A model generated the notes under the pieces. That model had not been told where the DNA came from, made no database searches, and saw nothing but the letters and a program-made list of their open reading frames with translations. The translations under genes and the position numbers were made by a program. Shown here piece by piece: positions 41,694 to 46,567 of a stretch of 64,000 nucleotides of DNA. Source of the stretch: Bacillota bacterium (GTDB lineage Bacteria; Bacillota_I; Bacilli_A; RF39; UBA660); NCBI GenBank assembly GCA_015059485.1, contig SVAH01000005.1, forward strand, positions 621-64,620, in the 5' to 3' direction. Numbering within the stretch: the stretch's first letter is position 1; every line of letters starts with the position of its first letter.

Positions 41694-43409
41694 ATGAAAA
41701 GTTTAAAAGCGTTCATACCCCTTTGGAGATTCATTAAAAAAGAAAAAGGAAAATTTATAATTGCCACTATTTTAGTGTTTATATCTTCAATAAGCTTTTT
41801 ATTTATTGGATACTTAAATGGTGCAGCCATTGAGTCAATAACAAAATTGAACTTAAAAAGAGCTTTGTTATTATTATCAGCATATTTATTTGTTGAAGTA
41901 GTTTTAGATTTACTATGTTCAAGAATGTCATCAAGAATATTACAAAGAATAGAAAATAGAGTGTCTCGTGAACTTAGTTATGAAACATATACTAAATGTT
42001 TAAATTTACCAGCATATGCTTATGAAAAAAAGTCATCTGGTGAAATTATTAATAGAATTACAAGTGATAGTGAGAGTTTATCATTTACATTTGGTAGAGT
42101 AATAAATATTGTTACATATTTATTTGGTACAGTAATTTTATTCTTTTATATATGTTATAACTCATGGATTATAGGTGTATTAATTGTAATATTTGTATGT
42201 TTAATTGCACTTGTAATGAAACATTATAATCCAATTGTAAAAAAGACACATAAAGCACGTAAAGATAGTCAAGATAAATTTATATCAATTACTAATGAAT
42301 CAATAAGGGGTATAAGAGAAATAAAGACATTAGGTATAAAACCTAATTTATTATCAGAAACTAGAAAAGTAATAAAAGAAATATTAGAAAAAAGTTATGA
42401 AGAAACAAGTTATAATATTAGATATCGTATATCAACGGGTATACTTAGAATGTTACTTGAAGTATCAACATTTATGACCTGTGCAATACTTATGTATTAT
42501 GGAAAAATAAATTTAACTTTCTTTATAGCTATGACGTATTACATTTATAGATATACATGGTTAATGGAAGAAATAAGTGATTTTTCAGAAAGTTATCAAA
42601 AACTAATTGTTTCACTTGAAAGAGTTAATGAAATAATAGAAAATAAATTATTTGAAGATGAAAAATTTGGTAAAGAATCATTAAAAGATGTAAAAGGAGT
42701 TGTAGAATTTAAAAATGTAAATTTTGCCTATCCAGGTGAAAAAAATATACTTAAGAATTTTAATTTGGTACTAGAGCCAAATAAGAAAATCGCAATAGTT
42801 GGAAAAAGTGGTCAGGGTAAATCAACAATATTTAATTTATTAACAAGAGTGTTTGATTGTAAAAAAGGTGAAATTACTTTAGATGGAGTAAATATTCAAG
42901 ATTTGACTGAAGAAAATTTACGAAAACATATTTCAATAATTAGACAGGAACCATTTATATTTAATAGAAGTATTAAAGAAAATTTTAAAATAGTAAATGA
43001 AAAAATAAGATTAAATGAAATAAAAAAATATACACAAATGGCTTATTTAGATGACTATATAATGAGTTTACCTAAAAAGTATGACACTGTTTTAGGTGAA
43101 GGTGGAGTTAATCTATCCGGAGGACAAAAACAAAGACTTTCAATTGCCAGAACACTTGCTAAAGGAAGTAAGGTTATTTTATTTGATGAAGCAACATCAG
43201 CACTTGATAATTCATCACAAGAATATGTTAAAGAAACTATAGATAAACTTGTAAAAGATCACACTGTAATAGTAGTTGCACACAGGTTATCAACAATTAT
43301 AGATGCGGACATTATTCATGTTATTGATGGAGGAAAAGTTATTGCATCTGGAACTCATGAAGAATTATTAAAAACATGTGAAACTTATAAGAAGTTATAT
43401 AATGCTTAA
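41694..43409 (+). CDS. ABC exporter, fused permease and ATPase; paralog of 21501..23261
   Basis: GKSGQGKS, LSGGQ and ILFDEATSALD; GGAGG SD. Confidence 0.93.
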   Translation: MKSLKAFIPLWRFIKKEKGKFIIATILVFISSISFLFIGYLNGAAIESITKLNLKRALLLLSAYLFVEVVLDLLCSRMSSRILQRIENRVSRELSYETYTKCLNLPAYAYEKKSSGEIINRITSDSESLSFTFGRVINIVTYLFGTVILFFYICYNSWIIGVLIVIFVCLIALVMKHYNPIVKKTHKARKDSQDKFISITNESIRGIREIKTLGIKPNLLSETRKVIKEILEKSYEETSYNIRYRISTGILRMLLEVSTFMTCAILMYYGKINLTFFIAMTYYIYRYTWLMEEISDFSESYQKLIVSLERVNEIIENKLFEDEKFGKESLKDVKGVVEFKNVNFAYPGEKNILKNFNLVLEPNKKIAIVGKSGQGKSTIFNLLTRVFDCKKGEITLDGVNIQDLTEENLRKHISIIRQEPFIFNRSIKENFKIVNEKIRLNEIKKYTQMAYLDDYIMSLPKKYDTVLGEGGVNLSGGQKQRLSIARTLAKGSKVILFDEATSALDNSSQEYVKETIDKLVKDHTVIVVAHRLSTIIDADIIHVIDGGKVIASGTHEELLKTCETYKKLYNA

Positions 43410-43428
43410 TCTTTAAATTTTAAATGAT

Positions 43429-43461
43429 AAAAACGTTCGCAAAATTTGTCGAACGTTTTTT
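43429..43461 (+). terminator. intrinsic terminator
   Basis: AAAACGTTCG-N10-CGAACGTTTT plus T tract. Confidence 0.85.
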
Positions 43462-43579
43462 ATTTAATTAACTTAGTATAAACAATTGAGAAAAGGAGAA
43501 AAAGCACACCACCACAAAAAAACTTATGAGGGACCCGAGTTTTGGGGGCTTTGTAAGAAAAATTGCGGAGGTGGTAATA

Positions 43580-43660
43580 ATGAGTAAGAAAGATTTTTTA
43601 ATCGGACTTCTTTTTGTTATTATTTTTATATTACTTGCCTTAGTGTTTAAGTTAATATAA
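43580..43660 (+). CDS. 26-aa hydrophobic peptide, putative type I toxin (MSKKDFLIGLLFVIIFILLALVFKLI)
   Basis: GGAGGTGG SD; single TM; ORF conserved in the second copy with synonymous and conservative changes; absent from the supplied ORF track. Confidence 0.85.
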   Translation: MSKKDFLIGLLFVIIFILLALVFKLI

Positions 43661-43740
43661 AAAGAAGCTTTCATTCTGAATGAATGAAAGCACAAATCTT
43701 TAAAGGTGAGTGCATGTCCAGAGGATATGTTTTCTCACTT
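43659..43740 (-). ncRNA. putative antisense antitoxin RNA (copy 1)
   Basis: minus-strand TTGATA(43775-70)-N17-TG-ext TATTAT(43752-47); 10-bp hairpin 43667-91 followed by TTCTTTTT. Confidence 0.72.
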
Positions 43741-43845
43741 AAATAGATAATAACATATTAGTAGATAAATATCAATTAATATAATTATGCTTTAAATATT
43801 GTATTTATTTTGTTATAATACAAACTTAATTGGTGGTGAAATAAT

Positions 43846-44949
43846 ATGGCAACTAAAATTGATTTATATACAAAATATGATCAGCCATTGTTTTTAAAAG
43901 AAGAAAAAATAAAAAAAATGAAAGAACAATTAGAATATATTATATCAATTTCTGATATGAATTCTTTAGATTTTGCAAAAAATGCATTATTTAGTGAAGA
44001 AATAAAAGCAAATAATTTAGTTGAAAATTATAAAGATGACATCGAATATATTGATGATGTTGTAAAAGAAAACAAAAGAAGAAAAAATGCAGAAGATGAA
44101 AAAGCACAAAGAATTTTAAATTTATTTAATGGTTATAAATATATTCTTGGTTCAAGTGAAATAACAAAAGATAATCTAAAAAAATTATATAATATATTAT
44201 CTAGACATTTATTAGGTGATTATGATTTAGAACATATGGGTGAATACTATAGAAATGAAATGGTATATATTTATACATCAGATAATGTTGCAAAGGCACC
44301 AGATGAAGGAATGGATACTAAAAAAGTTGATAGATGTATGAATTTATTACTTGAATATATTAATACTGATAATCATTTAGATTGTTTTACTGACTATTAT
44401 ATAAAGTCACAAATAGTTCATTATTATTTTGTATACGTACATCCATATTTTGATGTTAATGGAAGAACAAGTAGAACTTTAGCTATTTGGTATTTACTTA
44501 ATAATATGATTTATCCATATATTATATTTAATCGTGGTATAACATATGATAAAAATAAATATTATAAATGTATATCTAATGCTAAAAGAGGTGGAAACAT
44601 AACATTATTTATTGAGTATATGCTAGAAAATGTAAAAAATGAATTAATAAAAGAATATGGAATAATGGAAATAGAAAAAGAAAGAGAACTTACGAATTTA
44701 GAACGTCAATGTATTAATTATATAATGTCTATGAATGGAAATATGACAACAATAGATTTTGCTACAACATACAATAGATTTAATGATAAGAGAAAAAATA
44801 GTGACATAATTAATAATGTTATAAATCCATTAATTGAAAAAGAAATAATTATTCCTGGTAGACCTACTAAAAAACAAGGTAATTATTTCTTTAATTTAAA
44901 TGAAGAAATGTTAGAAGATTATAATGCTTTGACAAGGAAGTTGAAATAA
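43846..44949 (+). CDS. Fic family protein with C-terminal HTH-like region
   Basis: HPYFDVNGRTSR Fic motif (Gly to Val at position 6). Confidence 0.92.
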   Translation: MATKIDLYTKYDQPLFLKEEKIKKMKEQLEYIISISDMNSLDFAKNALFSEEIKANNLVENYKDDIEYIDDVVKENKRRKNAEDEKAQRILNLFNGYKYILGSSEITKDNLKKLYNILSRHLLGDYDLEHMGEYYRNEMVYIYTSDNVAKAPDEGMDTKKVDRCMNLLLEYINTDNHLDCFTDYYIKSQIVHYYFVYVHPYFDVNGRTSRTLAIWYLLNNMIYPYIIFNRGITYDKNKYYKCISNAKRGGNITLFIEYMLENVKNELIKEYGIMEIEKERELTNLERQCINYIMSMNGNMTTIDFATTYNRFNDKRKNSDIINNVINPLIEKEIIIPGRPTKKQGNYFFNLNEEMLEDYNALTRKLK

Positions 44950-45105
44950 ATCGTTCGCAAAATTTGTCGAACGATTTTTGTTTACAATTAAGTAATAGAT
45001 AATTATTATAAATACTTGAGAAAAGGAAAAAAAGCACACCACCACAAGAAACTTATATGGGACTTTAGTTCAGGGGGTTATAAGACAATTGTGGAGGTGG
45101 TAGTA

Positions 45106-45186
45106 ATGAGTAAGAAAGATTTTCTAATTGGACTTCTTATTATTATAATTTTTATATTACTAGTAATAATACTTAAGTTAATATAA
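45106..45186 (+). CDS. 26-aa hydrophobic peptide, putative type I toxin (MSKKDFLIGLLIIIIFILLVIILKLI)
   Basis: TTTACA(44981)-N17-TATTAT(45004) promoter and GGAGGTGG SD; paralog of 43580..43660. Confidence 0.85.
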   Translation: MSKKDFLIGLLIIIIFILLVIILKLI

Positions 45187-45267
45187 AAAGAAGCTTTCAT
45201 TCTGAATGAATGAAAGCACAACATCAATTGGTGAGGTGCATGTCCCTAGGAATGCCTTTTCTCACTT
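45185..45267 (-). ncRNA. putative antisense antitoxin RNA (copy 2)
   Basis: minus-strand TTGTCA(45302-297)-N17-TG-ext TATTAT(45279-74); hairpin 45193-217 plus TTCTTTTT. Confidence 0.72.
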
Positions 45268-45295
45268 AAATAAATAATAACATAAAAAAAATTAC

Positions 45296-45326
45296 TTGAC
45301 AAGTATACTTGGGGGGGGGGTAAAAT
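45296..45326 (+). promoter_or_regulatory. sigma-A promoter with a G10 homopolymer in the spacer (phase-variable candidate)
   Basis: TTGACA(45296-301)-AGTATACTT-G10(45311-20)-TAAAAT(45321-26); spacer is 19 bp. Confidence 0.8.
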
Positions 45327-45350
45327 AAGCTTAAGAATAGAGGAATGTAT

Positions 45351-45926
45351 ATGAAAAAAGTATTTAAAAATCCAATAATAATGTTTGTACTGGGAGCCCT
45401 AATATTTTCAAGTATAAGTGTATATGCAGCACATAAATATGCTGCAAGTGATATAACATATAAAGATACAACACTAGATCAAGCATTAAATACATTATAT
45501 ACAACTCAGAATACAACAGTAACAAATTTACAAAGTCAAGTAACATCTTTAACAAACGAAAAAACGTCATTACAAAATCAAATAAATACAAAAGATGCAA
45601 CTATCTCAAGTTTACAATCTCAACTATCAGTTTATGATAATGCTAATTGTGTAACAGGATCTTTTGATAGTTCGAATTACTCAACTTCTACTGATAAAAA
45701 GTTAATTAGCTTTTCACCAAAAAAATTTATAATTTATGAAACAACTAGTGCTTGGGGTGGTGGACATTTTTGGCTAGAAGGATGGACAAATTTTGTCGAT
45801 ATAACTTGGGGAAAAGATTATATTAATGCTAGTCAAAGTTTAAGTAAATATTATACCGTAAATAATGGGTTGTATATTCATAACTTTCCAACTGGAGTAA
45901 CTTTATACTACATGGCATGTAGATAA
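45351..45926 (+). CDS. secreted/surface protein with a coiled-coil stalk and C-terminal globular domain
   Basis: signal peptide ending SVYA, heptad-like NLQSQVTSLTNEKTSLQNQI segment, C-terminal domain with 2 Cys. Confidence 0.85.
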   Translation: MKKVFKNPIIMFVLGALIFSSISVYAAHKYAASDITYKDTTLDQALNTLYTTQNTTVTNLQSQVTSLTNEKTSLQNQINTKDATISSLQSQLSVYDNANCVTGSFDSSNYSTSTDKKLISFSPKKFIIYETTSAWGGGHFWLEGWTNFVDITWGKDYINASQSLSKYYTVNNGLYIHNFPTGVTLYYMACR

Positions 45927-46060
45927 TATTTTATCTACATTTTTTTATGAATACGTATATGCTCACATTTAATTATTGATGTGTGCATATCAAAGATAGT
46001 GATACTTGTGATTAAGAATATCGTGTGATATAATTCAAATATACAAAGGATGTGGTAAAT

Positions 46061-46120
46061 ATGATAAAAACTAAATTTAAGAAAAAATATAGAAAGTTTA
46101 CCACACAATTAAATTTTTAA
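46061..46120 (+). CDS. 19-aa Lys-rich uORF (MIKTKFKKKYRKFTTQLNF), possible leader peptide
   Basis: TTGTGA-N17-TGA-TATAAT promoter (46006-34) and AAGGA SD; followed by a GC-rich hairpin at 46129-55. Confidence 0.4.
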   Translation: MIKTKFKKKYRKFTTQLNF

Positions 46121-46177
46121 TTAATACAGGGACTCTCTATATTTTAGAGGGCCCCTTTAATGTTGAAAGGAGAATAT

Positions 46178-46567
46178 ATGAAAAAAGAAAAATCATGTGG
46201 AATAATTGTTATTAATGATAATAAGGTACTAATGGTAAATCAAAAAAATGGCGTATATTCGTTTCCGAAAGGACATGTTGAAGAAAATGAATCAGAAATT
46301 GATACAGCATTAAGAGAAGTAAAAGAAGAAACTAATATAGATGCTAAAATAACTAGTGATAAAAGATATGTAGTTAATTATATAACTGATAAAGGAATAA
46401 ATAAAACAGTAGTATTCTTTCTAGGAAAAGCAATTAGTCTTGATATAGCAAAACAGGAAAGTGAAATAGAAGAAGCAAATTGGGTAGATATAGAACATGT
46501 TTATGATACAATAAGTTATGATAATATGAAAGAATTGTGGAAAAATGTATTGGAGGAAATAAAATGA
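46178..46567 (+). CDS. NUDIX hydrolase (Ap4A hydrolase-like)
   Basis: FPKGHVEENESEIDTALREVKEETN Nudix box. Confidence 0.93.
   Translation: MKKEKSCGIIVINDNKVLMVNQKNGVYSFPKGHVEENESEIDTALREVKEETNIDAKITSDKRYVVNYITDKGINKTVVFFLGKAISLDIAKQESEIEEANWVDIEHVYDTISYDNMKELWKNVLEEIK

Follow-up and report, generated by a model that had tools for sequence, protein, structure and literature searches.

Contingency loci that switch by slippage are textbook features of a few pathogens, namely Neisseria, Campylobacter, Treponema and the mycoplasmas, and in other bacteria tested G tracts of nine or more nucleotides are length-variable within strains. In Neisseria meningitidis, the promoter spacers of porA (poly-G) and opc (poly-C) contain homopolymers, and expression is graded by their length. 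Each vlp gene of Mycoplasma hyorhinis reportedly carries a poly-A tract in its promoter spacer, in work said to be that of Rosengarten and Wise (1990/1991; listed in PMC11868660) and Citti and Wise (1995). The poly-G promoters of Treponema pallidum tp0126 and tprE/G/J/L are likewise said to have been described by Giacani in 2007 and 2015. The tp0126 tract lies between the -35 and -10 elements and transcription is best when it sets the spacer to 17 nt; one modal length is found on most molecules in vivo, and tprE/G/J are transcribed only with eight or fewer G's (PMC7864442).

Here we describe a poly-G promoter found in a 64-kb stretch of bacterial DNA, analysed as a whole and referred to below as the window. 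As with Vlp, it belongs to a multigene family: each member has its own conserved promoter/leader/signal-peptide block, with a homopolymer between -35 and -10, ahead of a mature part that diverges. The host, too, is a genome-reduced Bacillota relative of low GC content. Vlp members switch independently, and we propose the same logic for the poly-G family. Unlike Vlp, the tract is poly-G and not poly-A, the signal region (ending in SISVYAA) has no lipobox Cys, and neither internal tandem repeats nor the size variation that goes with them were seen (alignment A1). Where Vlp occupies one locus, the genes described here are scattered over at least nine contigs, and both MutL and sporulation genes (spoIIGA-sigE, on contig L033 of another strain) are present.

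The likeness to tp0126 and tprE/G/J/L of T. pallidum lies in poly-G tracts of roughly 7-11 in the promoters of paralogous surface-protein candidates. The phylum and cell envelope differ, however, the proteins are unrelated, and in the present case one cassette has been copied before all members, often fused to a small-peptide/antisense module. The porA and opc promoters share the homopolymer within the spacer, but are those of single genes in a Gram-negative pathogen as opposed to a cassette-bearing family. By analogy, the poly-G family appears to work like Vlp and tpr/tp0126 without being a member of those protein families, given the absence of lipobox, repeats and homology. It is a known kind of feature in a new lineage, with a new, large and unannotated protein family. 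The case stands out in that every long G run of the genome belongs to one family, and by the link to small-peptide modules. We consider that the locus is probably a slipped-strand contingency promoter serving a combinatorial surface-protein family.

Anatomy of the poly-G promoter

The features of the locus, read directly from the sequence where so indicated, are collected in Table 1. The promoter anatomy put forward in the first-pass annotation (a perfect -35, 9 nt, G10 and TAAAAT, giving a 19-bp spacer) is borne out, and its remark that no other long G run was seen in the window also holds, as the G10 is the sole G or C run above five nucleotides in the whole window. The ORF-finder start, an ATG at 45345, was rejected as lying too near the ribosome-binding site. 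Given the intrinsic terminator at its end, the window gene is a monocistronic unit.

Table 1 Features of the poly-G promoter, its gene and the adjoining upstream module (window positions)
Feature	Position	Strand	Basis or detail
26-aa hydrophobic peptide gene (MSKKDFLIGLLIIIIFILLVIILKLI), type I toxin-like module directly upstream	45106-45186	+	
Hairpin terminator of predicted antisense small RNA; also ends the peptide gene	45193-45217	-	terminator scan
Divergent promoter, TTGTCA (45302-45297), 17 bp, TGtTATTAT	45274-45302	-	10/12 matches, TG-extended
-35 hexamer TTGACA of the cassette promoter	45296-45301	+	sequence
AGTATACTT, 9 nt between -35 and G run	45302-45310	+	sequence
G10 homopolymer, sense strand, abutting the -10; spacer 19 bp	45311-45320	+	sequence
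-10 hexamer TAAAAT	45321-45326	+	sequence
Short conserved leader, ribosome-binding site GAGGAA at 45340-45345	45327-45350	+	20-mer AGAATAGAGGAATGTATATG
ORF of 191-aa exported protein, ATG 45351, stop 45926	45351-45926	+	
Intrinsic terminator, 10-bp stem and T7	45917-45946	+	fold -10.7 kcal/mol, z = -4.6

Other roles for the G run were considered. Reading GGGTAA as the -10 of a sigma-B-like promoter was rejected by inspection, there being no GTTTAA-like -35 at 12-15 nt, and a G-quadruplex was rejected because it needs four G-runs and the G10 is only one. A-form compaction of the tract, by which 19 bp would act as 17, is disfavoured by the published 17-nt optimum of tp0126.

A promoter cassette repeated across the genome

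The source genome comprises 1.41 Mb in 35 contigs, with a GC content of 25.6% and an estimated completeness of 74%. It contains eleven G or C runs of seven or more nucleotides, and all eleven lie in promoter spacers ahead of paralogs of the window gene, such that a homopolymer of at least 7 between a recognisable -35 and -10 is found at the window locus and at 10 further loci. Ten of the runs are part of one conserved promoter/leader cassette, consisting of TTGACA, 9 nt, Gn, TAAAAT (TATAAT once) and a fixed leader ending in AGAATAGAGGAATGTATATG, with n = 10, 10, 7, 9, 10, 10, 7, 10, 10 and 11. The eleventh, also a G10, belongs to another promoter, on contig C31 (TTGACA-AT-G10-TAGCATGA-TATAAT), so that the genomic lengths are 7, 7, 9, 10 (seven times) and 11. 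The TTGACA is identical in all 14 promoters for which upstream sequence is available (13 cassette copies and the C31 promoter).

The leader 20-mer occurs in 14 exact copies in the genome. It was absent from 40 related genomes when one mismatch was allowed, and metagenome contigs scanned with it returned unrelated genes only. In three further cassette copies the tract is interrupted by substitutions (GGGAGTGGG, GGTGGGGTGG and GTGGGGGCAG), the last of which heads a truncated gene. An alignment of the cassettes reveals that tract lengths of 7, 7, 9, 10 and 11 occur between nearly identical flanks. On the reading we favour, the G10 run would be the mutable core of a promoter/leader cassette, with a leader fixed at 24 nt, that is present at least 14 times, with one surface-family member behind each.

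The enrichment of G tracts is directly observed. Relative to a genome-wide first-order Markov model, runs of nine or more G/C are more than 100-fold enriched (9 observed vs 0.07 expected), with 8 observed vs 0.01 expected for runs of ten or more. A/T runs of ten or more are instead depleted about 30-fold (4 observed vs ~127 expected). Taken together, this indicates that the genome purges long homopolymers generally and keeps them only in these promoters. A/T runs of 6-7 are in slight excess across the genome.

Spacer length and predicted promoter activity

To place the 19-bp spacer, perfect TTGACA and TAnAAT pairs without poly-G were counted by spacer length in the genome, with the reversed sequence as control. 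The 17-bp class was by far the most populated (32 observed, 4 in the control), followed by 16 bp (9 and 2), while 18 bp (5 and 6) and 19 bp (7 and 8) were at background. The canonical 17 bp is therefore the optimum of this genome and 16 bp is tolerated, in keeping with the earlier claim that a G8 tract would restore the optimal spacer.

We pooled 28 family promoters from the source genome, other strains and a further genus (G010). Their spacers measure 15 bp (one), 16 bp (two), 18 bp (five), 19 bp (14), 20 bp (four) and 21 bp (two); none of the 28 has 17 bp, and the mode is 19 bp, accounting for half of the set. Interrupted, and in that sense locked, tracts have spacers of 15, 18, 19, 20 and 21 bp. 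The G10 allele of the window stands two steps above 17 bp and, going by spacer length, should be weak or off; for the poly-G spacer of T. pallidum tp0126 the 17-bp rule has been upheld by experiment (PMC7864442). The absence of a 17-bp consensus fits members being ON in few cells, with the assembly recording the majority that are OFF. By the same token, it cautions against reading the ON length from sequence.

We propose that slipped-strand mispairing at replication would gain or lose G's, each step shifting the -35/-10 distance by 1 bp. With sigma-A promoters tuned to 17 bp, G10 (19 bp) would be weak or off, G9 intermediate, and G8 to G7 on. Paralogs would switch independently, yielding a population with changing combinations of stalk-and-tip proteins, and the window copy would be in the modal, 'standby' G10 state. 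High-frequency reversible slippage, an effect of tract length on transcription, and surface display are what we infer from these patterns.

Tract length across assemblies and strains

Comparison with independent assemblies shows that the window locus is also G10 in a JGI contig (L015). A syntenic ortholog in another strain (L017), with the same NUDIX and Ham1 genes downstream, has G10 as well, as is a relative of the window gene in a third strain (L016) with a different upstream context; the flanks of both tracts differ from those of the window while the length is the same. Among the paralogs, three assemblies agree on G9 for the C4 copy and four on G7 for C3_18413; two assemblies each give G11 for C25_62065 and G10 for the C5 copy. 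The C8 paralog is G9 in ERZ27247006 (L095), whereas two JGI contigs end within 13 G's (L096) and at least 9 G's, with TAGAAT in place of TAAAAT; contig ends are unreliable, which makes this a weak discrepancy. Apart from this contig-end case, a search for near-identical strains with another tract length found none. Consensus length is thus constant at each locus compared (window, C4, C3_18413, C25_62065 and C5), over two to four assemblies that are possibly from related samples.

A homopolymer artefact of sequencing or assembly was a reasonable concern for a metagenome-assembled genome, particularly given the odd G13 at one contig end (L096). However, eleven loci share a conserved context, the same design occurs in other genera, and independent assemblies from JGI and ENA yield matching lengths: the window's G10 recurs in the JGI contig, and the unequal G7, G9 and G11 of other loci recur in up to four assemblies. 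This reproducibility effectively refutes an artefact, which we regard as extremely improbable.

The same constancy bears on the phase-variation reading of the first-pass annotation, which stands in part. The recurrence of one cassette ahead of ~14-17 paralogs with tracts of 7-11, together with the same design in related genera, strengthens it considerably, while the invariant per-locus consensus length between assemblies speaks against it; the length variation that was expected across samples was not seen at the window locus (G10 in both assemblies, and in both other-strain relatives). The G run might instead be a fixed promoter element, conferring a constant low strength or bound by a regulator, with old and stable length differences between paralogs. 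That each locus keeps one length in all assemblies is what such an element would give, as is the tight G10/19-bp mode across genera, which is maintained even as 8 nt + G11; moreover, MutL is present, so no repair defect raises slippage. On the other hand, lengths of 7-11 are found between cassettes with near-identical flanks, the broken tracts and the decayed gene are the expected remains of lapsed switches, the purging of long A/T runs shows that slippage is a real pressure in this genome, and no regulator is known or adjacent. In T. pallidum, G tracts of nine or more vary in length within strains (PMC7864442). On balance we regard a fixed element as rather unlikely and a switching promoter as the better account.

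The stalk-and-tip protein family

A jackhmmer search of all six-frame ORFs of the genome identified about 17 paralogs of the window protein, 14 of them with the exact leader 20-mer. Several have a conserved promoter, homopolymer and signal-peptide block to themselves, after which the mature region diverges. Thirteen are complete, at 172-279 aa, and the remainder are truncated or cut at contig ends. The alignment shows the proteins to be mosaics of modules: signal/anchor segments of two alternative types, each ending in the nearly invariant SISVYAA, are followed by two alternative N-modules surrounding an invariant ALxxLY motif, a heptad region rich in Q, N, S and T, and a highly variable C-terminal domain. 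By our reading, the first Cys (C[VI].G) and the last (AC[RK]) occur together in 10 rows of the alignment and are missing together from 7, and this covariation suggests that the pair forms a disulfide clamp.

An AlphaFold2 model of the window protein (mean pLDDT 75) has a helix at residues 8-30, a long helix at 41-97 that forms the coiled-coil stalk, and a β-sandwich at 100-190 that forms the variable tip. It agrees with the earlier description of the product as a signal-peptide protein with a stalk and a globular tip. With a signal/anchor helix, a stalk and a tip bearing the covarying Cys pair, the product looks extracellular, judging from sequence and model. A Foldseek search of the PDB returned nothing at E ≤ 0.001, and the best match in BFVD is a phage tail-fibre protein (E = 2e-4, TM 0.33). 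Sequence searches of Pfam, NCBIfam and the PDB gave no family match, all signals being coiled-coil noise that fell short of the cut-offs. When 1.8 billion representatives were searched with a profile, 1723 cluster relatives were retrieved at E ≤ 1e-3, 340 of them at E ≤ 1e-10; all eight relatives looked up come from metagenome assemblies and are unannotated. A scan of the family alignment against genome contigs returned no relative.

In other strains the C-terminal domain of the window gene lies behind a different signal-peptide type (P0001 and P0002), indicating that the conserved 5' block also mediates shuffling. This raises the possibility that the cassette, tract included, serves mainly for recombination, by offering homology for gene conversion between paralogs or a site at which mobile cassettes attach, with switching incidental. 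The many contigs that break at or near the tract could be seen in the same light, but such breaks are expected at any repeat. Recombination requires long conserved flanks and not a G run, whereas the tract is always placed exactly between a perfect -35 and a -10. A mainly recombinational role therefore seems very unlikely to us, and recombination at the cassette would in any case be compatible with, and not exclusive of, a slippage-driven promoter switch.

Several further observations concern the family. The SISVYAA segment (residues 21-27 of the window protein) is recognisable in other genera as GIGVYAA and SSTVYAT. Such conservation is unusual for an ordinary signal-peptidase site, and the segment may be where a dedicated step of processing or anchoring takes place. 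Two family genes (C3_18413 and C25_62065) are each followed by a gene of ~300 aa for a DUF1016/YhcG-type (PD-(D/E)XK) nuclease (L221 885-1373; L223 1227-1743), which suggests a repeated two-gene unit. In another strain, a relative of the C31 paralog immediately precedes spoIIGA (Peptidase_U4) and a gene resembling sigma-E (L033 813-1914), indicating that the lineage has sporulation genes despite genomes of ~1 Mb.

Small-peptide modules upstream of the cassette

Directly upstream of the poly-G promoter, a divergent promoter is predicted to drive a minus-strand transcript of ~84 nt that abuts the 3' end of the peptide gene (fold -24.6 kcal/mol, z = -3.0). The -35 of this promoter has 5 bp in common with the TTGACA on the plus strand. 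The overlap with an opposite-strand promoter had been pointed out in the first-pass annotation, and it proves to be a conserved feature of the cassette copies: by our reading of the alignment it is kept in five of seven module-bearing copies. All seven cassette copies with this upstream-region type are preceded by a small-peptide module, the peptides being MSKKDFLIGLL (three), the 28-aa MNKDTRLFLQ (three) and a third variant (one); in four other copies, TTGACA is immediately preceded by a terminator hairpin. Three of the four genomic copies of the 26-aa MSKKDFLIGLL peptide lie 145-157 nt before a poly-G cassette. The composite unit of peptide gene, antisense RNA, poly-G promoter and surface gene occurs seven times in the genome, with two peptide families. 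An Rfam search over 43300-46200 found nothing relevant.

The second hydrophobic-peptide family, represented by the 28-aa MNKDTRLFLQSIIIFILLLIIGYLLYLM and its variant MKKDTKDTTLYKIIFILLYIIIRLLG, is found ahead of four other poly-G cassettes outside the window (C3 ~22,800; C4 ~40,800; C12 ~20,950 and ~65,550). All of these peptides come with a promoter of their own, a structured leader, a strong SD and a hairpin, mirroring the MSKKDFLIGLL module of the window. A gene for a Fic-domain protein of 367 aa (PF02661, E = 2e-8) is located at 43846-44949 of the window, between two copies of the small-peptide module.

Since one -35 site serves both the poly-G promoter and the divergent promoter of the small RNA, a single RNA polymerase would be accommodated there at a time. 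Tract length might in that case set surface-protein expression and, reciprocally, antisense-RNA transcription. Phase would then be coupled to the balance of a type I toxin-antitoxin pair, in which the antisense RNA would presumably restrain the adjacent toxic membrane peptide, all inside a lineage-wide phasome made up almost wholly of promoter-spacer poly-G tracts held in 19-bp standby. We regard this extended scheme as unlikely.

Distribution in related genomes and beyond

Conservation of the design in other genera is also a matter of direct observation. In genus G010 of the same taxonomic family we found ~20 poly-G promoters or tracts with ~15 homologues behind them that share the N-terminal block; many of these promoters read TTGACA, 8-9 nt, G10-11, TATGAT. 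In G015, tracts of G8-9 lie ahead of homologues. Across the taxonomic family, 213 of 401 genomes (132 of 214 genera) contain at least one G9/C9 run, and some contain dozens; most of the tracts sampled fall within promoter spacers, with genes for pilin-like and signal-peptide proteins downstream. Of the 401 genomes, 383 encode MutL, the source genome among them, and mismatch-repair loss as the driver of the tracts was rejected on this basis.

A scan of 185,579 species for TTGACA-N8-11-G9-TAWAAT identified at least 119 loci, compared with ~2 expected by chance on a uniform-composition estimate. The matches listed lie mostly ahead of genes for exported proteins and come from Lachnospiraceae, Treponema, Saccharibacteria, Selenomonadales, Streptococcus suis, Streptobacillus and numerous 'uncultured Bacilli' MAGs, among others.

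The significance of a poly-G switch here would be that an uncultured, spore-forming and repair-proficient rumen/gut commensal devotes all of its long G runs to one stalk-and-tip family. If so, a large and unstudied gut lineage would generally rely on promoter poly-G tracts to vary its surface stochastically, perhaps as a strategy aimed at phages or host immunity, and tract length per paralog would provide a marker for tracking subpopulations in metagenomes.

In other genera and phyla (L069, L070, L150 and L118), poly-G spacers occur before type IV pilin or pseudopilin-like genes (N-termini KAFTLVELLAVIVIL and GFTLVELLATIVIL) and also before proteins with SipW/TasA-type signal peptides (…AYFTT). 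Two genomes of the same genus as the source genome, G001 and G004 (L225, L232 and L249), carry a different poly-G cassette, cttgacaaacgttc-G9/10/11-tgtaaaatataa.cataagatata.tacgaaggagtaaatgttATG, which precedes another exported family (MLKLRKFKEKKL...SKTYAIYK). The gene content of the phasome consequently differs between species of one genus. At one locus of G001 (L234; C73, ~8528), the promoter reads cttgacaaaaaccgtt-G10-aggaggaggaggaggaggggg-tataat, the G10 being followed by (AGG)5-like repeats that give a grossly over-long spacer; these may represent a second type of repeat expansion affecting poly-G promoters.
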